Below are positions 31,271-47,058 of a DNA stretch of 64,000 bases, one piece after another. The DNA lies in the NCBI GenBank assembly GCA_937890005.1, contig CALBZA010000017.1:7571-71570 (forward strand), in the 5' to 3' direction. Both the position numbers and the translations under genes were made by a program. The DNA is from an uncultured Verrucomicrobia subdivision 3 bacterium. Lineage in GTDB: Bacteria > Verrucomicrobiota > Verrucomicrobiia > Limisphaerales > DASXHY01. Under the pieces are notes generated by a model that saw nothing but the letters and a program-made list of their open reading frames with translations, did no database searches and was not told the origin of the DNA. Position 1 is the first letter of the stretch, and the number at the start of each line of letters is the position of its first letter.

Positions 31271-33817
31271 ATGCCCAGTTCGAAGACGTTTCCGAGATGT
31301 CGTGCGCCGAAGTGGTTCTGGTTCGGATTGGGATTTCTTCTGCTCTGCTTTCCCGGTTTTGCGCAAACGCTGATTGAATCTCAGAAACTGTTTCTTGGCG
31401 GTGATTACAACGCCGTGATCCGTGCTGCCGAAGCGCGCAGCCACAGTCTTTCGACCGACTGGCATGTGCTTTATGTCAAATCGCTGCTGATGGTCGGGCG
31501 TTATGATGAGGCGCGAGCGCGCGCGAAAGTGGCGGTTGACTATTCGCCGTTGGACCTGCGGGTTCTCATGCTCGCGCGCGAGGCGGCTTTGTATGGAAAC
31601 AATCCCGTCGAGGCGAACCGCCGGTTGTTGGAAATGCGGCTGGTGATCGAACGCAGAGGCTTGAATGTGTCGGATGGTGAAAGCCTCGTCGCAGCGGGCG
31701 AGGCGTTGCTGCTGCTGGGGGTCGAGCCGCGGGTGATTCTGGAAAATTGTTTCCGACGCGCGGAACGGATGACGGCTCCGCCGCGCGAAGCGTTTCTGGC
31801 GATCGGGAAACTTGGGTTGGAAAAACGCGATTTCGCACTGGCGGCAGAAACGTTTCGCGCAGGTTTGAAAAAGTTTCCCGATGACGCCGACATGTACGGC
31901 GGACTGGCACAGGCGTTTCAAACCGGCGACCGGAAGGAAATGCTTTCGGCGATTGAATCGGCGCTGGCGAGAAACGCCAATCACATCCCCAGCCTGCTGC
32001 TGCTCACGGATCATCTCATCGATGGCGAGCAATATGACGAAGCGGAAAAACAGGCGCAGCTCGTGTTGAAGGTGAATCCCTCGCATCCCGAAGCCTTCGC
32101 TTACCGCGCCGTGATCGCACATCTCCGGAATGAACGCGACCGGGAACAGCAGTTGCGCGCGGAGGCCCTGAAGTTCTGGAAAACGAACCCGAATGTGGAC
32201 CATCTGATCGGCCGGAAGTTGTCGCAGAAATATCGTTTCGAGGAAGGCGCCGCCGCGCAGAAAAAGGCTTTGGAATTTCAGCCCGATTTCCTTCCCGCCC
32301 AACGGCAGCTCGCGGAAGATCTGCTTCGCCTCGGTTACACGGAAGAGGGCTGGAAGCTGGCGGAAGCGGTTCACAAGCACGACGAATACGACGTCACAGC
32401 GTTCAACCTCACCGTGCTGCGCGACAAGATGGGCGGATTCAAAAGCCTCACGAATGGAAACTTCATCGTCCGCATGTCTGAACGCGAGGCGGCGATTTAT
32501 GGCGATCGTGTCCTCGCGCTGCTGGAACGGGCACATTCGGTGTTGTGCGGCAAATACGGCGTCAGGCTGACGCGGCCGACGATCGTGGAGATTTTTCCCG
32601 AGCAGAAGGATTTTCAGGTTCGGACATTCGGCATGCCCGGAAATCCCGGTTACCTGGGTGTTTGCTTTGGATCGGTGATCACCGCCAACAGCCCTGCCTC
32701 GCAGGGAAGTTCTCCGGCGAACTGGGAAAGCGTTCTCTGGCATGAGTTCTGTCACGTCGTCACTCTGAACGCGACCCGGAACAAAATGCCGCGCTGGCTG
32801 AGCGAAGGCATTTCGGTTTACGAGGAACGTCAGGCGAATCCCGCGTGGGGCGAGAGAATGAATCTGGCGTATCGCGACATGATCCTTGGCGACGATTTCA
32901 CTCCAATCGGAAAATTGAGCGGCGCCTTCCTCGCTCCAAAAAGCAGCCAGCATCTGATGTTCGCCTATTACGAATCATCGCTCGCCGTGGAGTTCATGAT
33001 TGAGAAATACGGACTGGAGGCGATCCGGAACATTCTGCGCGATCTCGGAGCCGGCGAAGAAATCAACAAAACCATCGCCGCGCACACCGCGGAATTGTCG
33101 AAGGTGGAAAAGGAGTTTGAAGCTTATTGCCGGGAAAGAGCGAAGAATCTTGCGCCGGACATCGATCTGACCCGTCCGCCCGGGCGCGGCTCGGAATCCG
33201 AGCTGACCGTATGGCAGGCGACGAATCCGAGGAATTACTTCGTGCAGATGCGCAAGGCGCGGCTGGCGATGGAAGAAAAGCGGTGGAACGACGCCAAACC
33301 GATCCTTGAATCTGTTTCCAAAGCGTACGCGGGCGAAACCGGCGGCGACAATCCGCTCTGGCTGCTGGCCGTGGTGGAACGGAATCTCGGAAACACCAAC
33401 GCCGAACTGGCGTTGCTGGAGCGGCTGGCAAAACAGGATGCCGATTTTATCGAACTGTTTCAGAGATTGATCGAGCTGTCCGAACAGCGGCAGGACTGGA
33501 CGAACGTGATGCATTACACCGAAAAGCTTCTCGCGGTAAATCCATTGATCTCACTGCCGTATCGCGCCCTGGCGCGCGCGGCGACGGCGATGGAACGAAA
33601 CGATCAGGCCATCGGTGCGTATCGAGCGCTCCTGTTGTTGAATCCGCCTGATCCGGCGGATGCTCATCTGCAACTCGCGCGATTGCTTCACAAGCGCGGC
33701 GATTCGCGGACCGAGGCGAAAAGGCATGTGCTGAAAGCACTGGAAGAGGCGCCGCGCTTCCGGGCCGCGCAGCAGTTGCTGCTGGAACTGCGCGAAGGCG
33801 AAGCGGTGACGAATTGA
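31271..33817 (+). CDS. Secreted TPR-repeat protein with an embedded gluzincin (peptidase MA-like) domain
   Basis: Signal peptide; HExxH motif LWHEFCHVV followed by WLSEGISVYEE (third-ligand Glu context); TPR units at both ends. Confidence 0.7.
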   Translation: MPSSKTFPRCRAPKWFWFGLGFLLLCFPGFAQTLIESQKLFLGGDYNAVIRAAEARSHSLSTDWHVLYVKSLLMVGRYDEARARAKVAVDYSPLDLRVLMLAREAALYGNNPVEANRRLLEMRLVIERRGLNVSDGESLVAAGEALLLLGVEPRVILENCFRRAERMTAPPREAFLAIGKLGLEKRDFALAAETFRAGLKKFPDDADMYGGLAQAFQTGDRKEMLSAIESALARNANHIPSLLLLTDHLIDGEQYDEAEKQAQLVLKVNPSHPEAFAYRAVIAHLRNERDREQQLRAEALKFWKTNPNVDHLIGRKLSQKYRFEEGAAAQKKALEFQPDFLPAQRQLAEDLLRLGYTEEGWKLAEAVHKHDEYDVTAFNLTVLRDKMGGFKSLTNGNFIVRMSEREAAIYGDRVLALLERAHSVLCGKYGVRLTRPTIVEIFPEQKDFQVRTFGMPGNPGYLGVCFGSVITANSPASQGSSPANWESVLWHEFCHVVTLNATRNKMPRWLSEGISVYEERQANPAWGERMNLAYRDMILGDDFTPIGKLSGAFLAPKSSQHLMFAYYESSLAVEFMIEKYGLEAIRNILRDLGAGEEINKTIAAHTAELSKVEKEFEAYCRERAKNLAPDIDLTRPPGRGSESELTVWQATNPRNYFVQMRKARLAMEEKRWNDAKPILESVSKAYAGETGGDNPLWLLAVVERNLGNTNAELALLERLAKQDADFIELFQRLIELSEQRQDWTNVMHYTEKLLAVNPLISLPYRALARAATAMERNDQAIGAYRALLLLNPPDPADAHLQLARLLHKRGDSRTEAKRHVLKALEEAPRFRAAQQLLLELREGEAVTN

Positions 33818-34001: not shown

Positions 34002-34937
34002 ATGAAACGCGCCATTCTCATTTTTCTGCTCGTGTGTGTGCTGGGCACGATTGTGTATGCGCAGCGTCGTCGTGGCTTTGGTGGTGGCTGGGGCGGAGGG
34101 GATGATGGGGGCATTGTTTATACGGAAGGCGGAATCCCGGTCGATCTCGACCGCGTGCGCACGGCGCGTGAGGTTGCGACGCACAGCACGGATACGCCGA
34201 TGTGGACAAACAATCCTGCATTTGCGCGCGATACCTTCACATTTGTCCGAATCATTTATGGTCGTAAAACGCAGGGTTACCTGCCAGGGCGGGCGGGCAA
34301 CTGGATAACGGATTTTCCCGACAGCGATCTGAATCTCTCATTCCGCGTGCAGCAGATGACGTCGATCAAGGTGGATCCCTACGGACGCATCCTGCGCCTC
34401 ACCGATCCCGACCTGTTCAACTATCCGTGGATTTACATGGTTGAACCCGGCCGGCTTGAGTTCAAGGAAGAGGAAGTGCCCATCCTGCGGCGGTTCCTGC
34501 TCAACGGCGGTTTCATGCTCGTGGATGACTTTTGGGGTGAAGTGCAGTGGCGGAACTTTCAGATGGAAATGAAACGTGTGTTTCCCGAGCGCGATTTCGT
34601 GGATGTGCCGATGGATCACCCGATCTTCAACTGTGTTTTCCCGCTGAAAGGTCCCAAGAATGCGCTGCAAGTGCCAAATTTCCGGGCCGGCATCGATACC
34701 CAACGCGGCGGACCCACCTGGGAATATCACGATGGCGAGCAATGCACGGAAGTGCACATCCGCGCGCTTTACGACGACAAGGGCCGGATCATCGTGCTTG
34801 CCCTGCACAACACCGACAACGGCGATGGCTGGGAGCGCGAGGGGGAGGGGCAGACGGATTACTTTTTCCGCCGGTTTTCCGAGAACATTTCGTTCCCGCT
34901 CGGCATCAACGTCATTTTCTATTCAATGACGCACTAG
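34002..34937 (+). CDS. Secreted DUF4159-like protein
   Basis: Signal peptide MKRAILIFLLVCVLGTIVYAQ, and DFPDSDLNLSFRV...YPWIYMVEPGRLEFKEEEVPILRRFLLNGGFMLVDDFWG as in DUF4159. The family call was made from memory. Confidence 0.6.
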   Translation: MKRAILIFLLVCVLGTIVYAQRRRGFGGGWGGGDDGGIVYTEGGIPVDLDRVRTAREVATHSTDTPMWTNNPAFARDTFTFVRIIYGRKTQGYLPGRAGNWITDFPDSDLNLSFRVQQMTSIKVDPYGRILRLTDPDLFNYPWIYMVEPGRLEFKEEEVPILRRFLLNGGFMLVDDFWGEVQWRNFQMEMKRVFPERDFVDVPMDHPIFNCVFPLKGPKNALQVPNFRAGIDTQRGGPTWEYHDGEQCTEVHIRALYDDKGRIIVLALHNTDNGDGWEREGEGQTDYFFRRFSENISFPLGINVIFYSMTH

Positions 34938-35007: not shown

Positions 35008-36012
35008 GTGGAAACGACAATTCATGAAACAGACGCGCAGACGGTTGAGAAACTGATCGCCGGACGCGCGCATATTGAGACCGAACTTTCCAAGGTGATC
35101 GTCGGCCAGAAGGATGTGCTCGAGCAGATTCTGCTGGCGCTGTTTTCCGGCGGGCATTGCCTCATCACCGGCGCGCCCGGCCTGGCGAAAACGTTGCTCG
35201 TGAAATCCATCGCGCGAATCTTTCACCTGAACTTCCAGCGCATCCAGTTCACGCCCGACCTGATGCCCGCAGACATCACCGGCACTGAAATTCTTTCCGA
35301 AACCGAAGCCGGCCGGCGCCTGACCTTCGTCAAAGGCCCTATCTTCGCCAACATGATTCTGGCCGATGAAATCAACCGCACACCGCCAAAGACGCAGTCG
35401 GCGCTTTTGGAAGCGATGCAGGAACATCAGGTGACCGCGGTCGGAATCCGTCATGCGCTGCCGGAACCGTTCTTCGTTCTTGCGACGCAGAATCCGATCG
35501 AAATGGAAGGCACCTATCCGCTGCCCGAAGCGCAGCTCGACCGGTTCATGTTCAACGTCGTCATCAATTATTTGCCTGAGGACGACGAGGTGGAGGTGGT
35601 TCAGCAAACGACAGCGCGGAAGCAATTGAACATCGAACCGCTGTTCACGGGCGAAGATGTGCTTCGGTTTCATGAACTCGTGAAACAGGTGCCGATCGCG
35701 CAAAGCCTGGTTCGTTACGCGGTGCGGCTTGCCGCGGCCACGCGACCCGGCCAGAACGGAACGCCGGAGTTCGTCAATCAATGGGTGAGCTGGGGCGCTG
35801 GAACACGCGCATCGCAGTTTCTGGTGCTTGGCGCCAAGGCACGGGCGCTGTTGCAGGGGCGCACCCACGTCACCGGCGACGACATCCGGACGCTTGCGGC
35901 GCCGGTGTTGCGGCATCGTGTACTCGTGAATTATCGCGCCGAGGCGGATGGTGTTGGTGTTGAAACCATCATTTCCAAACTGTTGCAGCACGTCACTGAA
36001 CCGGTTGCGTGA
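35008..36012 (+). CDS. MoxR-family AAA+ ATPase
   Basis: Walker A GAPGLAKT, Walker B ILADEINR, and ATQNPIEMEGTYPLPEAQLDRF, a MoxR hallmark. Confidence 0.9.
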   Translation: METTIHETDAQTVEKLIAGRAHIETELSKVIVGQKDVLEQILLALFSGGHCLITGAPGLAKTLLVKSIARIFHLNFQRIQFTPDLMPADITGTEILSETEAGRRLTFVKGPIFANMILADEINRTPPKTQSALLEAMQEHQVTAVGIRHALPEPFFVLATQNPIEMEGTYPLPEAQLDRFMFNVVINYLPEDDEVEVVQQTTARKQLNIEPLFTGEDVLRFHELVKQVPIAQSLVRYAVRLAAATRPGQNGTPEFVNQWVSWGAGTRASQFLVLGAKARALLQGRTHVTGDDIRTLAAPVLRHRVLVNYRAEADGVGVETIISKLLQHVTEPVA

Positions 36013-36028
36013 AGATTCTTTCCTGTTA

Positions 36029-36988
36029 ATGCCTGTCGTTTCTCCAGCTTCCTCCGCCGATCGCGGCCGCGGTTACGCCGATCCGAAAACGTTGATGGCG
36101 ATCCGCAACCTGGAGCTCCGCGCACGCGTGGTTGTGGAGGGATTTTGGAACGGTCTGCATCGCAGTCCGTATCATGGCTTTTCCGTGGAGTTCACGGAAT
36201 ACCGGCAATACAGCCCCGGCGATGACACGCGGTATCTCGACTGGCGCCTGTTCGCACGATCGGATCGTTATTACCTGAAAAAGTTCGAGGACGAAACTAA
36301 CCTGCGATGCCATCTGCTCGTCGATCAAAGCCGGTCGATGGAATACGGCTCGATCGGTTATTCGAAGTCGGACTTCGCCCGCACACTGGCCGCGACGCTT
36401 GCGTGGTTTTTGCATGGACAGGGCGATGCGGTCGGCTTGTTCACGTTCGGAGAACAGGTGAACGATTATCTTCCCGCACGGAACCGTCAGGGCCATTTGC
36501 GGCAGCTGATGCTGGCGCTGGAAAAGCAGGTGCCCGGACGAGAAACGAACGTCGCCGGAGTGCTTCAGCGGGTGTCGGAGACCGTGCGGAAACGCGGTTT
36601 GATCGTTCTTGTTTCCGACCTGCTCGCGCCGGTCGAACCGCTGGAAAACAACCTGGCCCGGCTGACGGCGGCAGGGCACGAAACGATGGTGTTTCAGATA
36701 CTCGATCCGAACGAGCTGGCGTTTGAGTTTTCGCAGGCAACGCTGCTGGAGGATCTGGAAAGCGGGCGGGAAATCGCACTCGATCCGGACAGCATTCGTT
36801 CTGAATACCAGCGCAAGCTGAGCGCTCATCTCGAACTGATCGATTCGAACTGCCGTCGCCTCGGTATTCCGGTTCATCGTCTTGTGACAAATCAGCCGCT
36901 GGAAATCGCTTTGCTGGAATTGCTCAAGAGCCGGAATCGGCGCGGCAAATGGCAGCGGCGCTCGGGCTCAACAGGACGGTCGTCATGA
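36029..36988 (+). CDS. DUF58 protein (vWA-like, MIDAS DQSRS)
   Basis: GFSVEFTEYRQYSPGDDTRYLDWR is the DUF58 signature. The MIDAS-like motif is LLVDQSRSM. Confidence 0.85.
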   Translation: MPVVSPASSADRGRGYADPKTLMAIRNLELRARVVVEGFWNGLHRSPYHGFSVEFTEYRQYSPGDDTRYLDWRLFARSDRYYLKKFEDETNLRCHLLVDQSRSMEYGSIGYSKSDFARTLAATLAWFLHGQGDAVGLFTFGEQVNDYLPARNRQGHLRQLMLALEKQVPGRETNVAGVLQRVSETVRKRGLIVLVSDLLAPVEPLENNLARLTAAGHETMVFQILDPNELAFEFSQATLLEDLESGREIALDPDSIRSEYQRKLSAHLELIDSNCRRLGIPVHRLVTNQPLEIALLELLKSRNRRGKWQRRSGSTGRSS

Positions 36989-39120
36989 GTTTCCTCGCGC
37001 CCATCTTTCTGATCGCCGGCGCGGCCATCGCCGGACCGATTCTGTTTCACCTGATCCGCCGGGTCGCACGGGAACGGGTTCAGTTCAGCTCGACGCTGTT
37101 TCTTCATCCGACGCCGCCCAAGGTCACGCGCCGGAAACGTGTGGATGACGTGTTGCTGCTGGTTTTGCGCTGTCTGTGTGTGCTGTTGATGGCGCTGGCA
37201 TTTGCGCGGCCGCTGTTCTCGCGCAGTTCCATCGCGCCGCTGGTCACAGATGATCGACGGCAGAAATTGCTGTTGATCGACACGAGTGCGAGCATGCAAC
37301 GCGACGGGGTCTGGGAAAAAGCGCGTTCAATCGCAGAACGTCATCTTGCCGATGCCGGACCGGATGACCAGGTGGCGATTGCTTCTTTCGACCGGCGTTT
37401 TCAATCGGTGATCACGTTCGAGGAATGGAACGGCTGGTCGGCCGATCAGCGAAAAGCTCTCGCGCTGGCGAGGCTGGAGACGCTTTCACCCAACTGGAAC
37501 GCCACGCAACTCGGCGCGGCAATGATCAGCGCCGTCGAGCATTTCCAACATCAGGCTGTTTCCGGAAATGCGCCGGAACGGAAGGAGTTGATCCTGATCT
37601 CCGATCTTCAGGAAGGCGCGAAGCTCGATGGATTGCAGGGCTATGAATGGCCGCGTGATTTGACCGTGGTCGTCGATACCGTCGCTCCCGCGCGGCGCGG
37701 CAATGTGGGAATTCACGTTGTGTCGTCTGAAGGCAAGGCAGCGGGACCATCGTTCCGGGTCGTGAACGCACGGGATACAGCGCGGGAACGATTCAAGGTG
37801 CAGGTTCTCCACAGCAGCGCGTCGCCAGAGATGGCATCGGATCAAATTGTCGAAGCCTACGTGGCGCCGGGACAGATGAAGACGATGGCGCTTGAGCTGA
37901 ATGAATCCGCCCGAACCGCTGAACTTCGTCTTGAAGACCCGGAGCCGTTCGACAACCGGGCTTATGTCGTCGTTCCCCAAACCGAGCATGTGGCCATCGC
38001 GTGGCTTGGAAGTGAAGCGGCGAACGATCCGGCGCAGATGCGGTTTTACTTCGACAAAGCGTTTCCCGAAACCAAACGCCGACGGGTCGAAGTGGCGGTT
38101 GTTGGAAACAATCAGCCGGTTTCAGCCGCAGCGTTGCGGGAGGCATCGCTGACGGTTGTTTCGCGCGCGTTGAATGCCGCCGAAGCGGATGTTTTGAAAC
38201 AATGGATCGCATCCGGAAACGCTGTGTTGATGATGTTGCCGGAGGATGCGACGACCGACTCGCTGGTGGCGCTGACCGGTGTTGATGCGTTGCGTGTGAG
38301 TGAAGCTTCCGGCCGATTCGTGCTGCTCGGGAAGATCGATTTCAATCATCCGCTCTTCGCACCGTTTGCCGATCCGCGGTTCAGCGACTTTACAAAGATT
38401 CATTTCTGGAAACATCGGCGATTGGATTTGCCGGCGGAGACGGACGCGCGTGTGGTCGCGGGCTTCGATGACGATTCGCCGGCCTTGGTTCAGTTCACCA
38501 TCGGGAAAGGTTCTTTGCTGGTGCTCACATCAGGATGGCATCCGGCCGACAGTCAACTGGCTGTTTCGAGCAAGTTCCCACCGCTGATGCAGACACTATT
38601 GTCGTGGGCCATGGCGGCCACTCCGTCGCGATCGCAATTTGTCGTCGGCGACTCCATCCCGTCGCCGATTTCGACTGGTTCGGCGGTGGAATGGCAATCG
38701 CCGGATGGGAAACGGGAAACGCTCCCGGCGGGAACGGCTTTTGTGCGGACGGACGTCCCCGGATTTTACACCGCCCGTTTCGATGGGAAGGAACGCCAAT
38801 TTGCCGTGAACCTTTCCGCTGACGAAAGTCGCACGACTCCGGGCAGTGTGGATCAGCTGGCGAAACTCGGTGTGCCGTTGAAGGGCAATGAAACCAGGCT
38901 CACCGCTGCTGCGGCGGCGAGCCAGTCGGTGCTGTCGCAAAAGCATGAGCTGGAGGGTCGGCAGAAATTGTGGCGGTGGTTGATTGCGGGCGCGCTGTTG
39001 ACTTTGATTGCTGAAATGGTGTTGAGCGGCCGATTGATGCGGAAGAACGATCGTCGGACGAAAGATGAATCGCAGCCGGCTGCGGCACCTGTCGAGACGC
39101 GGAAGGAGGAGTTCGCTTGA
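36985..39120 (+). CDS. BatA-N-domain / vWA membrane protein
   Basis: MSFLAPIFLIAGAAIAGPILFHLIRR matches the aerotolerance-regulator N-terminal motif. MIDAS motif LLLIDTSASM, and a C-terminal TM helix. ATGA overlap with the DUF58 gene. Confidence 0.8.
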   Translation: MSFLAPIFLIAGAAIAGPILFHLIRRVARERVQFSSTLFLHPTPPKVTRRKRVDDVLLLVLRCLCVLLMALAFARPLFSRSSIAPLVTDDRRQKLLLIDTSASMQRDGVWEKARSIAERHLADAGPDDQVAIASFDRRFQSVITFEEWNGWSADQRKALALARLETLSPNWNATQLGAAMISAVEHFQHQAVSGNAPERKELILISDLQEGAKLDGLQGYEWPRDLTVVVDTVAPARRGNVGIHVVSSEGKAAGPSFRVVNARDTARERFKVQVLHSSASPEMASDQIVEAYVAPGQMKTMALELNESARTAELRLEDPEPFDNRAYVVVPQTEHVAIAWLGSEAANDPAQMRFYFDKAFPETKRRRVEVAVVGNNQPVSAAALREASLTVVSRALNAAEADVLKQWIASGNAVLMMLPEDATTDSLVALTGVDALRVSEASGRFVLLGKIDFNHPLFAPFADPRFSDFTKIHFWKHRRLDLPAETDARVVAGFDDDSPALVQFTIGKGSLLVLTSGWHPADSQLAVSSKFPPLMQTLLSWAMAATPSRSQFVVGDSIPSPISTGSAVEWQSPDGKRETLPAGTAFVRTDVPGFYTARFDGKERQFAVNLSADESRTTPGSVDQLAKLGVPLKGNETRLTAAAAASQSVLSQKHELEGRQKLWRWLIAGALLTLIAEMVLSGRLMRKNDRRTKDESQPAAAPVETRKEEFA

Positions 39121-40766
39121 TCGACGCGCGGTTACAGGTCCGGTTGGAAAGACTCGAAGCGCTGCGGAAGAAAGCGCGTCTGTGGAACCGCGCCGCAATT
39201 TGCTGGTGGATCGTTGCCGCCGCTCTGGCGGTGATTCAATTCAGCAAGGTGACGTCAGTGGAGTTGCGACCAATTTGCCTGATGACGCTTCTGGCGGCAG
39301 GCGTGGTTGCGGTCATTTCGATCTGGATTGTTGAGCGTCGTCGCGCGAACGATTTCCGGGCGCTCGTGCAGGGCCTTGAAGCGGAACATCCCGATTTGCA
39401 TCCGCTGCTTTCAACGGCGTACGAGCAGGAACGCGATCCGGATTCAAAGGAATTTCATTTCCTTCAGCAACGCGTGGTGACGCAGGCGCTGCAACATCCG
39501 TCGCTGCGCAGTTTGCAGGAGAGCCTTGAGAAAAAGCTGCTGACCGCCAAAACGAATCATGCGTTCGGCCTGGCGATCGCGGTGGTTTTGATTTCGATCT
39601 CGGGAATCGATCACGGCAAACCGCAACGCAAATCACCGAGCAAATCGTTGTTTGCGGAATCGATTCAGGTCGAGCCCGGCGACATCGAACTGGAGCGCGG
39701 ACGCAGTTTCGTCGTGACCGTCCGATTCGATCGCCAGCCGCCCAGTGAAGCCACGCTTGTTCTGGCAACGGGAGAGGGCATCAGGCGAATACCCCTGGAA
39801 CGGCATCTGGACGATCCGCTGTTTGGAACGAGCTTGCGTGAGGTTATGGAAAGCGGCTCGTATCACATTGAGTATGGATCGAAAAAGACCCGCGATTATC
39901 GGATCACCGTTTTCGAATACCCCGTGCTCGTCCGCGCCGACGCATCGTTGGAATTTCCCGCCTACACCGGACTCACGAACAAGGCGATTCCGGACACGCT
40001 GCGGATCACTGCGGTGGAGGGAACGCGTTTGAGTTACACGTTTCAGCTCAACAAACCCGTGGCTGAAGCGAGCCTGGTTTCCAAGGAACAAACCATCCGC
40101 CTGATGCCCGGAACGAATGCGGCTCTGGAATTGAGCGATTTTGCGTTAACCAGCAGCGGCAGGTTTGCGCTTCATCTGCGGGATCACGATGGACGGACGA
40201 ATCGACGCAGCAGTGAATTTGTTTTTCAGGTGCTGCCGAATCGTCCGCCTGATTTGAAACTGAATTTCCCCCGCGGTGATCAGCGCGTGTCGCGATTGCA
40301 GGAACTGCGATTGGAAGGCGAAGTGATGGACGACTTCGGCGTGGTGCGATACGGCCTTGGCTACGGAATCGCGGGAGACGAACCCAAATTCGTGGAACTT
40401 GGCGCCGGCGCCGCGCGCAACGAAAAACGGCCGCTCCAATACGAGATCGATCTGGAACAGCTCGGCGTCGATATCGACCAGGTGGTGTCGTATTTCGTCT
40501 GGGCCGATGACGTCGGACCTGCGGGAGAGATTCGGCGGAATTACGGCGACATGTTTTTCGCGGAGATTCGTCCGTTCGATGAAATTTTCAGAGCGGACCA
40601 ATCTGGCGGCGATGGCAGTGGGCAGGAACAGCAGGGTGGGGAAGGTGGCCAGGAGGGCGGTGGCGGTCAACAGACGCGACTGACCGAGCTGCAAAAACAA
40701 ATCGTGATCGCGACCTGGAAAATCCAGCGCGAGAAAGGAGCCGCTCCGGCGGTATCGAAGCCATGA
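39117..40766 (+). CDS. Hypothetical membrane protein (beta-rich ectodomain, Gly/Gln-rich C-terminus; possibly DUF4175-like)
   Basis: Two N-terminal TM helices. TTGA start/stop overlap upstream and ATGA overlap downstream. No catalytic motif seen. Confidence 0.65.
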   Translation: MIDARLQVRLERLEALRKKARLWNRAAICWWIVAAALAVIQFSKVTSVELRPICLMTLLAAGVVAVISIWIVERRRANDFRALVQGLEAEHPDLHPLLSTAYEQERDPDSKEFHFLQQRVVTQALQHPSLRSLQESLEKKLLTAKTNHAFGLAIAVVLISISGIDHGKPQRKSPSKSLFAESIQVEPGDIELERGRSFVVTVRFDRQPPSEATLVLATGEGIRRIPLERHLDDPLFGTSLREVMESGSYHIEYGSKKTRDYRITVFEYPVLVRADASLEFPAYTGLTNKAIPDTLRITAVEGTRLSYTFQLNKPVAEASLVSKEQTIRLMPGTNAALELSDFALTSSGRFALHLRDHDGRTNRRSSEFVFQVLPNRPPDLKLNFPRGDQRVSRLQELRLEGEVMDDFGVVRYGLGYGIAGDEPKFVELGAGAARNEKRPLQYEIDLEQLGVDIDQVVSYFVWADDVGPAGEIRRNYGDMFFAEIRPFDEIFRADQSGGDGSGQEQQGGEGGQEGGGGQQTRLTELQKQIVIATWKIQREKGAAPAVSKP

Positions 40767-43192
40767 AGAGCAAAGGAAAAAAATCGGTGTTGGGCGACGG
40801 CTTGTCCACAAAGGCTTCAAGGCAGCCATCGCGAACCCTGCGGCGGGCACTGATCGGTTCGGCGCTGTTCGTGGCGTTGGGAATGTTCGTTCCGCAATCC
40901 GGGTTCAGTCAGCAGCGTCAGAACCGGCCTCTCTCCGCCCCTTCAGTTTCTCCGGCTTCAGGAAACTATTCCTCCAACCTGGTCGTCATTCGCGAGGCAC
41001 AGCAGCAGGCTTTGACACAGGCGCGCGAGATGATGAACCAGATCGAGAGCGATCGCGACCGGGTGGCTCTTCAGGCCGCGATCAAGGAGATGGAGCGTTC
41101 GCAGGAAGCGCTTGAAGCCGCCGAAAAATCACCGGAGAAACTTGCCGCGGCGACCGCTGCGCAGCAGAACGCGTATCAGGCGTTGCTCAAGATGATGCCG
41201 CGCGAATATCGGATGCAACGAAGTCAGCGCAATCAGAATCAGGGCCGCGGGCAATCCGGCCAGCCCCAGCGGCAGCAGATGGAGCAGCTCGAGATGAGCC
41301 GCGAGGAGAATCGTTACGAAACGGAACGGCAGGCACGTGCCGAAGCGACGCCGCAGCAGCGGGAGCAGTTGGAGACGTCCAATAAATTGCGGGAGCTCGC
41401 GCAACGGCAGCAGGATTTGAACGAACGATTGCGGGAACTGCAGACAGCGCTTCAGGCGGCACGAACCGAACCGGAAAAGGAGGAGCTGCGCCGCGAATTG
41501 AAACGCCTTCAGGACGAGCAACGGCAGATGCTGGCCGACGTGGATCAGATGCGTCAGGAGATGGAACAGTCCTCAAACGCCACATCCGAGGCGCGCGAGC
41601 AGATGGAGCAGACCCGTGCCGACATGCAACGCGCGGCTGAGGAGATGCAGAATGAATCCGCATCGGGCGCCCTGGCCGCCGGCACGCGCGCGCAACAGAA
41701 CATGCAGAACCTGCGCGACGAATTGCGGCGTCAGGCTTCAAGCCAGTTCACAGACCAGATGCGCGACATGCGCAATGATGCCCGGGAACTGGCCCGGCGA
41801 CAGGAGGAGATCGCGCGTCAGCTCGATCAGCTGGAGAATGGCCGGGAACGGTCACTCGACAATTCGCGCGAGCGGCAGGAATTGGTCCGTCAGATGACCC
41901 AGCAACACAACGCATTGACGAATCTTCTCTCGAACATGCGCGCCGTAACCGAACAGGCCGAGAACACCGAACCGCTTCTTTCGAAACAGCTTTACGACAC
42001 GCTTCGCCGGGCGGATCAGGCGCGAACGGATGAAATGTTGCAAATGGGAGCGCAGCTGGCGGAACGCGGTTTCCTTCCGCAGGCGAGCGAAGTCGAACGT
42101 GGTATTCGACAGAACGTGAATGACCTTCGGCAAAGCATCGAGCGTGCGGCGGAAAGCGTGCTTGGAAACGAAGCCGAATCGCTGCGTTACGCGGAACGGG
42201 AACTGAATCAGCTCTCCGAACAGATTGAGAGGGAACTCGCCGGTGGCGGTGGAACCAATTCGCTGGCTGGGGCGGGCGGACGGTCTGGTTCGGAAACCAA
42301 TCGTTTGCGGGAAGCCGGGGGAGGAATGGGAATGGATCGGCAGGGTCAGTCCGGACAACAAGCCCGAACGGGAGAGCGAGAGGGAAATGAACCCGGCGGA
42401 CGAGGTTCCGAACGCAGCAATGGGCAACCCACTCAAGCAGGTTCAGATCAACCGGGCACGCAATCCGGTGCCAGTGAGGAAACTCGAGTCGCCCAGGCCC
42501 AGACGGGGCAGCGCGGCGAAGGCTCTCAACAGAACGAGCAGCCATCCGGTCAGGGAAATGGAACTGCCGGCCAGGGCGAAGGCCAGGAGCAACGTTCAGG
42601 AAATCAACAGGCGCAAAATGGCGACCGCGGTCAGCGCGGACAGTCCGGCCAGCAGGGTCAGTCCGGCCGGTCTGATCAGGGAAATCAAGGTGGCGAGCGT
42701 TCGAGCCCGACCGAGGGTCAGGGTCAGATTGCAGATGCAAACCCGCAGAGTGGTGGAGGTGGCGGCGGTAGAGGCGGTGGTGGTCGTGATGGCGATCGAT
42801 TGAGGCAGATTGCCGAACAGATTGGCGCCGGCAACGACGGCAGGCTGGATGGCGGACCGATCACGGGGGGCGGTTTTGTGAATTGGGCCGACCGGCTGCG
42901 CGATGTGGAACGCGTGCTGGAAGATCCGGAGCTTCGCAACGAACTGGCCTCGGTTCGTGAACGGGTTGCAGCGATGCGGGCCGAGTTTCGCGAATCCGGA
43001 CGGCGTCCGTCCGAGGAGGTGTTGAAGCACAACATCGTGAAACCGTTGAGTGAGGTGCGGGTCTGGTTGCGTCAGGAACTGGCGCGTCGCGAAACGCCGG
43101 AGGGACTTGTGCCGTTGGACCGCGATCCGGTACCGGAGACCTTCTCCGAACTGGTGCGCCAGTATTACGAAAATCTTGGAACGACCCGGTGA
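40763..43192 (+). CDS. Secreted coiled-coil / intrinsically disordered Gln-Glu-Arg-Gly-rich protein
   Basis: Signal/TM segment LIGSALFVALGMFV. Roughly 400 aa of heptad-like QQ/EE/RR sequence are followed by GQ(G/S)-rich low complexity. The structured C-terminus reads GGFVNWADRLRDVERVLEDPELR. Confidence 0.7.
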   Translation: MKSKGKKSVLGDGLSTKASRQPSRTLRRALIGSALFVALGMFVPQSGFSQQRQNRPLSAPSVSPASGNYSSNLVVIREAQQQALTQAREMMNQIESDRDRVALQAAIKEMERSQEALEAAEKSPEKLAAATAAQQNAYQALLKMMPREYRMQRSQRNQNQGRGQSGQPQRQQMEQLEMSREENRYETERQARAEATPQQREQLETSNKLRELAQRQQDLNERLRELQTALQAARTEPEKEELRRELKRLQDEQRQMLADVDQMRQEMEQSSNATSEAREQMEQTRADMQRAAEEMQNESASGALAAGTRAQQNMQNLRDELRRQASSQFTDQMRDMRNDARELARRQEEIARQLDQLENGRERSLDNSRERQELVRQMTQQHNALTNLLSNMRAVTEQAENTEPLLSKQLYDTLRRADQARTDEMLQMGAQLAERGFLPQASEVERGIRQNVNDLRQSIERAAESVLGNEAESLRYAERELNQLSEQIERELAGGGGTNSLAGAGGRSGSETNRLREAGGGMGMDRQGQSGQQARTGEREGNEPGGRGSERSNGQPTQAGSDQPGTQSGASEETRVAQAQTGQRGEGSQQNEQPSGQGNGTAGQGEGQEQRSGNQQAQNGDRGQRGQSGQQGQSGRSDQGNQGGERSSPTEGQGQIADANPQSGGGGGGRGGGGRDGDRLRQIAEQIGAGNDGRLDGGPITGGGFVNWADRLRDVERVLEDPELRNELASVRERVAAMRAEFRESGRRPSEEVLKHNIVKPLSEVRVWLRQELARRETPEGLVPLDRDPVPETFSELVRQYYENLGTTR

Positions 43193-45600
43193 TCACCCTT
43201 TCTGCCATTGTCATTGTTGGTCGCGACTGGTTGATTCCCGCGCTGATTCTCACCGGAGTGGCGATTGCGGCGTTGATCCGGTCCTGGCGTGAAACGGGAA
43301 CATCCCGGCGCACCGCTCCCATTTGTGCCGGCTTGAAGCTGCTCGGCGTTCTGCTTCTCGCACTTGCTTTGATGGAACCAATCTGGGCAGGTCAGCGGGC
43401 GAAACCGGGTGCGAACCTGTTCGGGATCATTGTGGATAATAGCCAGAGCATGACTGTGAAGGATGGCGGTGCGACTCGCGCGGAAAATGTTCGCGAATGG
43501 GTTGCGGGAAATGAACATCGCTGGCGCGCGCAGCTGGAGGAGGATTTTCAGGTGCGACGTTACACATTCGACTCGCGGCTGGAACATACGAAGGATTTCG
43601 CGCAGTTGAACTTCAACGGTTCCGTTTCCAGTCTGGCCAATGCGTTGCGGACGGCTGCGGAACAATGGCGCGGACAACCCGTTGCCGGCGTTCTGCTGTT
43701 CACGGACGGCAACGCCACTGACATTCGGGATGAACTTCCTGATCTCACCGGTTTCCCGCCAGTTTATCCTGTGATTGCCAACAGCCGGTCGCGACTGAAC
43801 GATCTGGCGCTCCGAAAAGTGACGATGAGCCAGACAGCGTTCGAGGATGCACCGGTGAACATTCAGGCGTCCGTTCGCGCTTCGGGATTCAGCGGATCGG
43901 ATGTGGTTGCCACGTTGACCGAAGTGGCGGTGCAGGATGTCGCTGATTCGAACCGGACGTTCAAAGCTTCCGTTTCAGCGCAGTCGAACACGGTTGCGTC
44001 TTTGACCTCGCGCGCACGCGGAGCGGAATCGGATTTGACGTTTCGCTTTAAACTCCAGCCGGATCAGCCCGGCATCCATGTTTATTCGCTCGATATTGCG
44101 AGCGGGAATGGACGGTCCGACGATGCCGGCGAGGCCACACTGGTGAACAACAGGCGCATGCTGGTCGTGGATCGCGGCCAGCAGCCATTCCGCGTGCTTT
44201 ACGTGAGTGGCAGGCCGAACTGGGAATACAAGTTTCTGAATCGCGCGATTCAGGAGGATCATCAGGTGCAGATGGTCTCGCTGATCCGCGTCGCGAAACG
44301 CGAACCGAAGTTTGAGTTCAAAGGACGTGCCGGCGAGTCGAGCAATCCATTGTTTCGCGGATTCAACGAAGCGGACGAGGAACGCGCCCGTTACGATCAG
44401 CCTGTTCTGGTCCGGTTGAACACGAAGGATGAACTCGAACTGCGCGGTGGTTTTCCAAAAACAGCCGGGGAACTCTTTCAGTATCACGCGCTGATTCTCG
44501 ACGATGTGGAAGCGGAATTCTTCACGCGCGATCAGTTGTCGCTGATCCAGCAGTTCGTCTCCGAACGCGGCGGCGGATTTCTCATGTTGGGCGGAGCGGA
44601 ATCGTTTCGCGAAGGGGATTACGCCGGAACCCCGATCGCGTCGCTGCTGCCGGTTTATGTCGATCGACCGGTGGAGGTTCATCTTCCTTCGCAATTGCGG
44701 CTGACGTTGAGCAGGGAAGGATGGCTTCAGCCCTGGACGCGGTTGCGTCCGACCGAATCCGAAGAGAACGAACGGCTGGAAACAATGCCGGCGTTTGAAG
44801 TCTTCAATCCCGTGCGCGACGTGAAACCGGGCGCGAGTGTGCTGGCCACGGTTTCCGATCCGGATGGCAGGAATTATCCCGCTCTCGTGGTGCAGCGTTT
44901 CGGTCTGGGACGCACGGCTGCATTGACCGTTGGTGATCTGTGGCGCTGGGGATTGCGGGACGAAACGATGCAGAAGGATTTGGGGCGGAGCTGGCGTCAG
45001 TTGGTCCGCTGGCTCGTGGCCGATGTTCCGGCGCGGATCACGGTGGCGGTGGAACCGTCTGAATCCGGCGATGCTTCAGCTGTGCGGCTTCGTGTGAAGG
45101 CTCGGGATGAAGATTTCAAGCCGATCGAATCCGCGAATGTGACGTTGAACCTGCGGCGAATTGTGGCCGCGGGGGAAAACAATGTTTCTGACAATCTCGT
45201 GCAGCTTCCGGCGGAACCGGTTGTGAATGAGCCGGGAACGTTTGATGCCACTTACATCGCGCGCGATCCCGGCGCCTACATGGTGGAGGCGTCCGTCGCG
45301 GATTCTGCCAACGTGAAAATCGGTTCCGCGGTCGCAGCGTGGGCATCCGAGCCGGATGCGGAGGAGTTCCAGAACCTTGAGGTCAATCGCGCCCTGCTGG
45401 AGAACATCGCACGCAAAACCGGTGGCGAAGTGATCGATTATCATGATCTCGAGAATTTTGCGAAGCGGCTGCCGAAGGAACGCGCGCCGGTGATGGAAGC
45501 GACGAGCACGCCATTGTGGCATCGACCTGAAGTTCTCGCGCTGGCCCTGGGATGCTTTCTTGTCGAGTGGGGATTGCGTCGGCGGAAAGGATTGCCATGA
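43189..45600 (+). CDS. Polytopic membrane protein with a vWA (MIDAS DNSQS) domain and a glutamine-amidotransferase-like fold domain
   Basis: N-terminal TM helices, the motif FGIIVDNSQSM, YHALILDDVEAEFFTRDQLSLIQQFVSERGGGFLMLGG (class-I GATase-like fold without an obvious catalytic Cys), and a C-terminal TM helix. GTGA overlap. Confidence 0.75.
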   Translation: MITLSAIVIVGRDWLIPALILTGVAIAALIRSWRETGTSRRTAPICAGLKLLGVLLLALALMEPIWAGQRAKPGANLFGIIVDNSQSMTVKDGGATRAENVREWVAGNEHRWRAQLEEDFQVRRYTFDSRLEHTKDFAQLNFNGSVSSLANALRTAAEQWRGQPVAGVLLFTDGNATDIRDELPDLTGFPPVYPVIANSRSRLNDLALRKVTMSQTAFEDAPVNIQASVRASGFSGSDVVATLTEVAVQDVADSNRTFKASVSAQSNTVASLTSRARGAESDLTFRFKLQPDQPGIHVYSLDIASGNGRSDDAGEATLVNNRRMLVVDRGQQPFRVLYVSGRPNWEYKFLNRAIQEDHQVQMVSLIRVAKREPKFEFKGRAGESSNPLFRGFNEADEERARYDQPVLVRLNTKDELELRGGFPKTAGELFQYHALILDDVEAEFFTRDQLSLIQQFVSERGGGFLMLGGAESFREGDYAGTPIASLLPVYVDRPVEVHLPSQLRLTLSREGWLQPWTRLRPTESEENERLETMPAFEVFNPVRDVKPGASVLATVSDPDGRNYPALVVQRFGLGRTAALTVGDLWRWGLRDETMQKDLGRSWRQLVRWLVADVPARITVAVEPSESGDASAVRLRVKARDEDFKPIESANVTLNLRRIVAAGENNVSDNLVQLPAEPVVNEPGTFDATYIARDPGAYMVEASVADSANVKIGSAVAAWASEPDAEEFQNLEVNRALLENIARKTGGEVIDYHDLENFAKRLPKERAPVMEATSTPLWHRPEVLALALGCFLVEWGLRRRKGLP

Positions 45601-46604
45601 GATTTCGTTTCATGAAGGCGATCATTTGGCGGCTTGCGATTCTTCTGCTGGCGACGGTTACCGCATTTCCCGTTACGGCACAGAATAGTTCGACAGTTCA
45701 AACGAATGAGGCGCGATCGCTTGTCCTGGTGATTGGCGCTGCGGGCGAACTGGAATATGGCGAGGCGTTTGCCAGATCGGCGGACCTTTGGACGGAAGCG
45801 GCGCGACAGGGCGGATTCCGAACCGTTGTGATCGGGCAGGGGACGAACTCAGTTGCCGACGACAAAGTGCAGTTGCTGACGACGATTACGAATGAAATCG
45901 CAGCGTCGGGTGGAGAACTCTGGGTCGTTTTGATCGGGCACGGAACGTTTGATGGCAAAACGGCAAAGTTCAATTTGCGCGGACCTGATATTTCCTCGGA
46001 TGAATTGGCGGCCGCGTTGAAGAACTGTCGGCGTCCTCTCGCGGTCATCAATTGCGCTTCCGCGAGCGGACCTTTTCTGAAGGCGCTGTCGGGTCCGGGC
46101 CGCGTGGTGATCACTGCGACGCGGAGCGGATACGAACTGAATCTGACGCGTTTCGGTGATTATCTGGCCAAGGCGATCGGCAGTCCGGAAGCCGATCTGG
46201 ACAAGGACGGTCAGACTTCGCTGCTGGAGGCCTATTTGATGGCGTCGCGGCAGGTCGAGCAGTTTTACACGGAGTCGGGCCGGCTCGCGACGGAGCATTC
46301 CTTGATGGATGACAATGGCGATGGACTGGGCACGCCGGCGGAATTTTTCGTGGGAGTGCGGGCGACGAAAAAGGCTGAGGGCGGTCGGAGCACGGATGGG
46401 GTCCGCGCGCACCAGATGAATGTGATTCGCGGAACGGAGGAGGCGCGGCTGTCACCGGAACGCCGCGCGCAACGCGATGCATTGGAGAGTGAATTGAACG
46501 CGTTGCGCGAACGCAAAACGTCCATGGCGGAGGACGATTACTATCGCGAGCTGGAGCGTGTTCTCGAAGCCATTGCCCGGATTTACCTTCAACCCGAAAC
46601 CTGA
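45597..46604 (+). CDS. Secreted clan-CD (legumain/C13- or caspase-like) fold protein
   Basis: Signal peptide MRFRFMKAIIWRLAILLLATVTAFPVTAQ. A His-Cys dyad sits in the canonical strand-end context: WVVLIGHG (His115, codon 45939-45941) and LAVINCASASG (Cys153, codon 46053-46055), 38 residues apart. It is followed by VVITATRSGYE. ATGA overlap. Confidence 0.6.
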   Translation: MRFRFMKAIIWRLAILLLATVTAFPVTAQNSSTVQTNEARSLVLVIGAAGELEYGEAFARSADLWTEAARQGGFRTVVIGQGTNSVADDKVQLLTTITNEIAASGGELWVVLIGHGTFDGKTAKFNLRGPDISSDELAAALKNCRRPLAVINCASASGPFLKALSGPGRVVITATRSGYELNLTRFGDYLAKAIGSPEADLDKDGQTSLLEAYLMASRQVEQFYTESGRLATEHSLMDDNGDGLGTPAEFFVGVRATKKAEGGRSTDGVRAHQMNVIRGTEEARLSPERRAQRDALESELNALRERKTSMAEDDYYRELERVLEAIARIYLQPET

Positions 46605-46623: not shown

Positions 46624-47058
46624 CTACGAGAGTTCGTCGATCAGTTCGATGCGTCGTTGGTGGCGTCCACCTTCGAACGGAGTGTCGAGCCAGACGCGGA
46701 CGATTTCGAGGGCCTGATCGAGGGACATCATTCGCTGGCCGAGCGAGAGCACGTTGGCGTTGTTGTGAAGGCGTCCGAAGCGGGCGGATTCGAGATCCCA
46801 GCAGAGTGAGCAGCGGATTCCTTTCACGCGATTGGCGGTCATCGCTTCGCCGTTTCCGGAACCGCCGAGGACGATGCCGCGTTCGGCTTCTCCCTTTGCG
46901 ACCGCTTCGGCCACGGGACGGATGAAGAGAGGGTAATCGACGGGAGAATCGGATTCCGGTCCGAAATCCTTAACGGTATGGCCCATGTTGGTGAGCATGG
47001 CCTTGATTTGTTCCTTATACTTGAACCCTGCGTGGTCAGATCCGATCGCAATCTTCAT
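46624..47058 (-). CDS. rpiB: Ribose-5-phosphate isomerase B
   Basis: MKIAIGSDHAGFKYKEQIK...GIVLGGSGNGEAMTANRVKGIRC...HNNANVLSLG are RpiB/LacAB signatures. Confidence 0.9.
   Translation of the reverse strand: MKIAIGSDHAGFKYKEQIKAMLTNMGHTVKDFGPESDSPVDYPLFIRPVAEAVAKGEAERGIVLGGSGNGEAMTANRVKGIRCSLCWDLESARFGRLHNNANVLSLGQRMMSLDQALEIVRVWLDTPFEGGRHQRRIELIDELS

Follow-up and report, generated by a model that had tools for sequence, protein, structure and literature searches.

Does the last gene of a MoxR-von Willebrand factor A (vWA) operon encode a protease that matures its operon partners, or does its product put a protease fold to another use? The question is raised by a 64,000-nucleotide window (the whole stretch of DNA analysed here) on contig CALBZA010000017.1 of an uncultured Verrucomicrobia subdivision 3 bacterium, in which the gene at 45597-46604 encodes a predicted exported protein of 335 amino acids (aa), P0001. 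An earlier note on this DNA had taken His115 and Cys153 of this protein for the catalytic dyad of a legumain/caspase-like (clan CD) peptidase and had proposed proteolytic maturation as part of the system. As Cys153 is neither conserved in the family nor in register with the catalytic cysteine of related peptidases, maturation through a His-Cys dyad is unlikely to be the conserved role. We favour instead, with moderate confidence, a Ca2+-binding, non-proteolytic periplasmic pseudo-legumain subunit of the MoxR/vWA complex. The protein is probably no classical processing protease, and serves instead as a subunit that does not cut or that at least is no cysteine enzyme.

The predicted fold and its closest relatives

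The gene and the elements on which the argument turns are the following:

45597..46604, plus strand: the whole gene, stop codon included, for the 335-aa, predicted exported legumain/caspase-fold protein (list of open reading frames (ORFs) and translation)
45702..46352, plus strand: predicted caspase-hemoglobinase (clan CD) fold domain, residues 36-252 (AlphaFold2 (AF2), Foldseek, hhalign)
45936..45947, plus strand: G114-H115-G116-T117 after beta3, a catalytic-type His-Gly motif (conservation, hhalign)
46053..46055, plus strand: Cys153 (TGC), the nucleophile proposed earlier, aligned two residues before the catalytic cysteine (Cys-2) in the hhalign register
46059..46067, plus strand: Ser155-Ala156-Ser157, with Ser155 aligned to the canonical Cys position and Ser157-Gly158 to the C-x-S-G motif and helix 4 N-cap

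The ORF and all of the motifs quoted in the earlier note are present in the translation: WVVLIGHG contains His115 (CAC, 45939-45941), LAVINCASASG contains Cys153 (TGC, 46053-46055), 38 residues after the histidine, and VVITATRSGYE corresponds to residues 170-180. The fold claimed there also held up in structure prediction. A full-length AF2 model, with a predicted local distance difference test score (pLDDT) of 79, matched caspases, MALT1, PIGK and a metacaspase in Foldseek searches. A model of the domain alone (residues 36-252), built from an 81-sequence alignment, reached a pLDDT of 93.5 and a predicted template modelling score (pTM) of 0.92, and matched CED-3, Dronc, caspases 6/7/9/11, MALT1, PIGK and the caspase-like domain of Raptor (probability 1.00, E 5e-7 to 4e-5, TMq 0.46-0.64). 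The predicted chain runs beta1-alpha1-beta2-alpha2-beta3-...-beta4-alpha4-beta5-alpha5-beta6 in an alpha/beta/alpha sandwich, which is the clan CD layout, such that the caspase-hemoglobinase fold is confirmed at the level of the models. His115 lies two residues past beta3 (107-113) and Cys153 immediately past beta4 (148-152), with helix 4 starting at 158. Because the two residues follow these strands of a confidently predicted caspase-type sheet, the quoted motifs are, by the models, not chance.

The link to clan CD is visible solely through fold and profile-profile comparison: when PDB sequences were searched with the protein or with three profiles of the family, only chance-level matches such as WbdD and TGA7 came up. 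Scanned directly with Pfam, NCBIfam and PADLOC, the 335-aa protein gave no meaningful match. Against Peptidase_C13 (PF01650), P0001 had no match at E<=10 and did not reach the gathering cut-off of 22.8 bits, and a six-frame search of its own genome with PF01650 gave no match. When 81 orthologs were scanned singly, sub-threshold matches appeared to Peptidase_C13 in seven (best E 0.0085), to C25 in three and to C14 in one, such that no ortholog came up to the Pfam cut-off for C13.

For the profile-profile comparison, the family was aligned by hhalign to two different sets of bacterial Peptidase_C13-matching domains from genomes of the same phylum, which pass or approach the PF01650 cut-off. The first set was matched with a probability of 94.2% (E 1.2e-7) and the second with 96.3% (E 1.5e-9, residues 32-260). 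The hidden Markov model of the family also matched a PF01650-positive domain (G073:C56) at 7.8e-6. By these comparisons the closest relatives are the legumain/GPI8-type C13 domains.

In fact, the likeness to C13 (legumain, PIGK/GPI8) includes several local features in addition to the common caspase-hemoglobinase fold, for which Foldseek found the PIGK chains 7wld_K and 8imy_K. Beta3 ends in an H-G that leads into a short beta-hairpin, beta4 in an x-S-G-x-F turn, and beta5 in a T-A-x...E loop. PIGK may also serve as an analogy in being an exported subunit of a multi-subunit membrane complex. In contrast to legumain, the family has an EF-hand-type loop and a C-terminal helical hairpin and not an LSAM prodomain.

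A serine in the register of the catalytic cysteine

In both hhalign runs GHG was aligned with the catalytic His of DHG/SHG, and P147-L-A-V-I-N-C-A-S-A-S-G-P-F paired gaplessly with P-x-x-x-x-x-[EDN]-x-C-x-S-G-x-F. It follows from this gapless pairing, from P147 to S157-G158-x-F160, that the catalytic Cys falls on Ser155 and that Cys153 falls on Cys-2. This register, which is sequence-based and not a matter of three-dimensional (3D) geometry, rests on two concordant profile-profile alignments together with the motif anchors. In both alignments the column of the canonical cysteine after beta4 (P+8, C-x-S/G-G) appears to be filled by Ser155. At Cys-2, which lines the S1 pocket in these enzymes, caspase-3 has Gln161, legumain Glu187 and MALT1 Asp462. 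Compared with C13, then, the family has Ser155 at the place of the catalytic Cys, and Cys, Thr, Ser, Gly or Ala, not Glu or Asp, at the S1-pocket position. For annotation, correct spacing of a His...Cys pair does not suffice to call a clan CD peptidase; here the call is overturned by register and by conservation among orthologs.

Conservation was scored over 231 distinct members (150 representatives with <50% mutual identity and 80 genome orthologs). His115 is His in 231/231, and its H-G motif sits at the C-terminal end of beta3, where clan CD enzymes carry the catalytic His. Position 153, however, is Cys in 122 members, Thr in 64, Gly in 19, Ser in 12, Ala in 11, Leu in two and Asn in one (C 53%, T 28%, G 8%, S 5%, A 5%), and a tree of 81 orthologs from the same operon, for which the loop columns had been left out, requires at least 16 changes of state at this position. 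Conservation of both residues had been named earlier as a check on the dyad; the histidine passed and the cysteine failed. As a partner of His115, Cys153 would be off register by two, and Thr, Gly, Ser or Ala replaces it in orthologs. Because Thr, Ser, Gly and Ala readily stand in for Cys at 153, no thiol is required for what the family does in common. Position 155 is Ser in 207 of the 231 members (90%), Ala in 20, Pro in three and Glu in one, and position 157 is Ser in 98%. Both Cys153 and Ser155 are missing from sixteen members, all of which keep His115, Asp131, Thr175, Glu180, Glu233 and Asp239.

A cysteine peptidase confined to the lineage of the window, in which Cys153 and His115 would mature or degrade the operon partners, has to be weighed at this point; it is the model of the earlier note narrowed to one clade. 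Cys153 comes directly after beta4, its spacing of 38 from the histidine is within the clan CD range, and it is fixed both among the closest relatives (51/51) and in the well-supported 13-row clade to which the protein of the window belongs, all with Cys at 153. In caspases, legumain and MALT1 the residue at Cys-2 forms part of the wall of the catalytic pocket, so the thiol should be near His115. Nevertheless, the cysteine is two residues off register in both profile alignments, and orthologs of the same operon have Thr, Ser, Ala or Gly there, so the function of the operon is independent of it; moreover, a metallopeptidase-like gene (HExxH, Peptidase_MA_2) already adjoins the operon. We consider such an enzyme improbable.

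Two further candidates involving thiols were tried and rejected. A Cys144-Cys153 disulfide fails because its two cysteines are separated by the length of beta4 and because Cys144 is clade-specific, and a replacement thiol in members without Cys153 fails because Cys156 is found in only 9/61 of them. Covariation of position 153 with position 158 or other loop residues was tested independently of phylogeny. The raw counts show an association (G158 in 26/33 Cys members versus 11/48 non-Cys members); with only two supported independent pairs, the test has no power.

The second active reading is that of a working Ser-His hydrolase or transpeptidase, with Ser155 as nucleophile, His115 as base and Gly116 in the oxyanion hole, possibly switched by Ca2+, which would process or ligate a periplasmic MoxR-vWA partner. 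It fits the Ser found at the canonical Cys position in nine-tenths of the members, the invariant GHG, a near-invariant crown of active-site residues (described below), and the C, T or S, all small and polar, that 86% of members have at position 153 in the S1 pocket. Among the 24 members without Ser155, about nine have Ser156, several have Ser or Thr at 154, and about twelve keep only Ser157. Yet Ser155 is absent from 24/231 members, and in about 12 of them neither 155 nor 156 is a Ser, Thr or Cys, while every other conserved residue is kept. Small residues make up the loop, as would be typical of a tight structural turn. We know of no serine-type clan CD enzyme. On balance, we hold a Ser-His enzyme to be unlikely, though the invariant His-Gly speaks for keeping it in view.

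In its most specific form the same idea would make the protein the first active non-cysteine clan CD enzyme, a Ca2+-switched Ser-His hydrolase/transpeptidase on a legumain scaffold, in which C/T/S153 tunes the S1 pocket and which acts on the periplasmic vWA partners of the MoxR chaperone machine. This is a speculation that we would not bet on; should the protein be active, the caspase fold would gain a new catalytic type. The extra Cys153 might add thiol chemistry in the clade of the window.

The serine codons were also recorded. Ser155 is encoded by TCN in 74/76 Ser-bearing orthologs and Ser157 by AGY in 80/81; the two codon classes are strictly separate across two phyla, which says nothing on catalysis.

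A maintained site and a putative Ca2+ loop

Besides the loop after beta4, the following elements of the protein are conserved or set apart in the models:

46101..46136, plus strand: beta5 and the following loop, R169-VVITAT-RSG-Y-E180, the putative equivalent of the substrate-binding loop (R169, T175, G178 and E/Q180 near-invariant)
46194..46229, plus strand: EF-hand-type 12-residue putative Ca2+ loop, D200-L-D-K-D-G-Q-T-S-L-L-E211 (conservation, Pfam)
46293..46325, plus strand: E233-H-S-L-M-D-D-N-G-D-G243, beta6 and a second DxDxDG-like acidic loop (E233 and D239 invariant)
46353..46430, plus strand: low-confidence linker, residues 253-278 (pLDDT <50)
46434..46589, plus strand: C-terminal helical hairpin, residues 280-331 (conserved R293, E297, L303 and Y315)

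The invariant or near-invariant residues of the family are G47, G50, G114-H115-G116-T117, N126, G129, D131, S157, R169, T175, G178, E180, E233 and D239, and these residues lie directly after the parallel strands (beta1, beta3, beta4 and beta5) and before beta6. As this is where clan CD active sites bind and cut their substrates, the site is under selection and has not decayed.

The putative Ca2+ loop is likewise maintained. DLDKDGQTSLLE fits the EF-hand pattern D-x-D/N-x-D/N-G-x-x-x-x-x-E, with ligands at 1, 3, 5, 9 and 12, and is near-invariant: D200 is found in all members, and D202, D204, S208 and E211 are conserved in at least 97%. Matches to the Pfam model EF-hand_5 were sub-threshold only (28/81 members, best 0.011), and the loop has a low pLDDT in the full-length AF2 model. 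A DxDxDGxxSxxEA motif is common to the family and to bacterial C13/C14-like domains. We infer that the D200-E211 loop may bind Ca2+.

Export, translational coupling and conserved gene order

Whether the protein belongs with the MoxR and vWA proteins depends on its compartment and on its genetic context, for which the relevant elements of the window are these:

45597..45683, plus strand: predicted signal peptide, residues 1-29, ending ...PVTA before a Q (read from the sequence)
45597..45600, plus strand: ATGA start/stop overlap with the gene for the 803-aa vWA/GATase1-like membrane protein (43189-45600)
35008..45600, plus strand: the upstream operon partners as one block
35008-36012, plus strand: MoxR AAA_3 (PF07726, 3e-63)
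about 36098-36988, plus strand: DUF58/vWA (PF01882, 9e-51)
36949-39120, plus strand: BatA-N/two_anch and vWA protein, 723 aa (PF07584, 1e-15; TIGR02226, 3.7e-18)
39117-40766, plus strand: membrane protein, 549 aa, weakly DUF4175-like (Pfam/NCBIfam)
40763-43192, plus strand: coiled-coil protein, 809 aa (Pfam/NCBIfam)
43189-45600, plus strand: vWA and GATase1_like membrane protein, 803 aa (Pfam/NCBIfam)
34002-34937: DUF4159 protein with a signal peptide (Pfam/NCBIfam)

The N-terminus, MRFRFMKAIIWRLAILLLATVTAFPVTAQ, resembles a Sec signal peptide, and residues 2-30 were modelled as a lone helix in the full-length AF2 model; the 335-aa protein is thus likely to be exported to the periplasm. The partner proteins have two_anch/BatA double-transmembrane anchors with Arg/Lys-rich connecting loops. 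From these loops it appears that their large vWA domains are periplasmic, in the compartment shared with the exported protein.

The 335-aa gene is present in a single copy in its own genome. Its ATG shares bases with the TGA of the 803-aa gene (GCCATGAGA), and an AAGGA stands ~8 nt 5' of the start. The ORF next downstream (46624-47058) is on the opposite strand; therefore 45597-46604 is the terminal gene of the co-directional run. This convergent ORF, of 144 aa, ends 20 nt past the stop codon of the 335-aa gene.

MoxR-vWA (Bat-type) operons are widespread, and the present one has an AAA_3 ATPase, a DUF58 protein and BatA-N vWA proteins in one co-directional cluster. The order MoxR-DUF58-BatA/vWA-549aa-coiled coil-GATase1_like-335-aa gene recurs in three metagenome contigs (L001-L003). 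Among species-level genome loci, a homolog of the 803-aa gene lies directly upstream in 78/80, the two exceptions being L078 and L080, the latter too short to judge. Where at least 9 kb of upstream sequence was available, the four membrane genes and the 335-aa gene were found in identical order in 52/56 loci. The loci span Verrucomicrobiota (Limisphaerales, Opitutales, Pedosphaera-like) and Planctomycetota (Pirellulales, Sedimentisphaerales, Phycisphaerales, Singulisphaera). The claim that this is the ATGA-coupled last gene of a MoxR-vWA operon is thus borne out by the overlap in the window and by the neighbour kept in related loci.

One could still regard the protein as an exported neighbour with no functional tie to the MoxR-vWA genes, as the absence of the usual upstream gene at L078 would allow. 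Such a reading is very hard to maintain when the upstream gene and the gene order are kept to this extent over two phyla, when start and stop codons overlap in the window, and when the genes downstream of the 335-aa gene vary among loci.

The PADLOC scan of the operon gave only weak AAA+ matches of the MoxR ATPase (DolB and mad8, E about 2e-4), and as far as the sequence tells, the operon is not a known defence system.

Several observations concern the genes upstream. The gene for the exported DUF4159 protein is linked to the operon, with variable placement: in the window and in L106 it stands immediately before MoxR, and L001, L027 and L041 have it downstream, on the opposite strand. Just upstream of the DUF4159-MoxR run, at 31271-33817 on the plus strand, lies a gene for an 848-aa tetratricopeptide repeat protein with Peptidase_MA_2 and an HExxH motif (WHEFCHV...EGISVYEE), which also has weak flagellinolysin/MXAN_6640 HExxH matches. 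If the system needs a protease, this protein is a more conventional candidate than the product of the terminal gene.

A proposed binding subunit of the envelope complex

How would a non-proteolytic pseudo-legumain that binds peptides or proteins work in this setting? We propose that the crown formed by His115, Asn126, Asp131, Ser157, Thr175, Glu180 and Glu233 holds a segment of a partner protein. Within the MoxR/DUF58/BatA-vWA envelope complex, the segment would be held in the periplasmic part, in a Ca2+-dependent manner and without proteolysis, and tight translational coupling would have the 335-aa protein made together with the complex. The binding role and the lack of proteolysis are inferred from the conservation and register described above. 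If the protein is such a binding module, it points to a segment or partner handled by the complex in the periplasm. The operon as found in the PVC group thereby gains a concrete last subunit, with a predicted legumain fold, an intact His-Gly, a maintained crown, a putative Ca2+ loop and no canonical cysteine.

Several points weigh against this proposal. Dead peptidases do not usually keep an invariant His-Gly, which hints at chemistry, and Ser155 (90%) or Ser157 (98%) could serve as nucleophile. Cys153, fixed in the 51/51 close relatives and in the 13-row clade of the window, may matter there. The Ser155 register comes from profile-profile alignments and not from a 3D superposition.

Comparison with known caspase-fold and MoxR systems

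The members of C14 (caspases, metacaspases, orthocaspases and MALT1) were the top Foldseek matches (TMq 0.58-0.64). In contrast to caspases, the family protein appears from its signal peptide to be periplasmic, and no p20/p10 processing loop is visible in it. Cyanobacterial pseudo-orthocaspases have a Ser at the Cys position and have also lost the His (Tyr-Ser; PMC6426788). The Ser is common to both groups, whereas the present family keeps the His in 231/231 members.

A precedent for the proposed role may be found, by analogy, in the N-terminal caspase-like domain of Raptor (mTORC1), a caspase fold that serves for binding and not for cleavage, and which was matched by Foldseek (9ed4_C, 7uxc_C, 6zpn_B and 6bcu_W). 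Raptor, however, is eukaryotic, cytosolic and without the Ca2+ loop, and has no detectable sequence relation to the family.

As to the operon, MoxR, DUF58 and BatA are components of the Bat (aerotolerance) operons that are present here too. The operons of MoxR, vWA (DUF58) and a transglutaminase-like peptidase (YebA) likewise combine a MoxR AAA_3 ATPase, DUF58, a BatA-type vWA protein and a protein with a peptidase fold. Unlike the YebA type, the peptidase fold here is predicted to be of clan CD and not transglutaminase/papain-like, and it resides in a periplasmic protein and not in a cytoplasmic loop. For the MoxR-linked transglutaminase-like systems, both active versions and inactive, peptide-binding versions of the peptidase have been proposed (PMC3495828). 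These inactive versions and the pseudo-orthocaspases are further precedents for the proposed binding role. Only the version of the operon in Verrucomicrobiota and Planctomycetota has the 549-aa, coiled-coil and GATase1-like partners. MoxR-vWA ternary conflict systems carry cytoplasmic caspase effectors (PMC7159879), and the PVC operon is distinct from them.

Size and spread of the family

The protein belongs to a large uncharacterised family without a Pfam or NCBIfam model. More than 6,698 homologs were found at 90% clustering, all of them unnamed or 'hypothetical' and without a Pfam domain, and a profile search gave 3,056 clusters at 50% identity. Defining the domain would in itself help to annotate many genomes better, as these >3,000 clusters now appear as hypothetical proteins only. 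The family is present in at least 596 species genomes (Verrucomicrobiota and Planctomycetota). It is patchy: in an even sample of the phylum, 14/301 genomes had a match, strong in only six. Our literature search found no description of the family or of the seven-gene PVC operon.

Distant paralogs (L108-L114, in genomes G193, G173, G119, G054, G180, G144 and G096; E 1e-11 to 1e-23) sit inside 370-890-aa proteins of other Verrucomicrobiota. None of them has the canonical Cys (loops NFSGSSG, GSEESGG, NTMSAPF and DFTSCSG), and in one GTS replaces GHG, such that the His is lost. These paralogs may bridge the family to true C13 peptidases.

Finally, several records of metagenome-assembled genomes with this Verrucomicrobiota/Planctomycetota-type operon (L051, L052, L053, L059-L061, L063, L069 and L096) have Klebsiella, Bifidobacterium, Akkermansia muciniphila, Acidoferrum or Binatia in their titles. 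These titles look like mis-assigned taxonomy, because the proteins nest in the tree among those of Limisphaerales and other Verrucomicrobiota.

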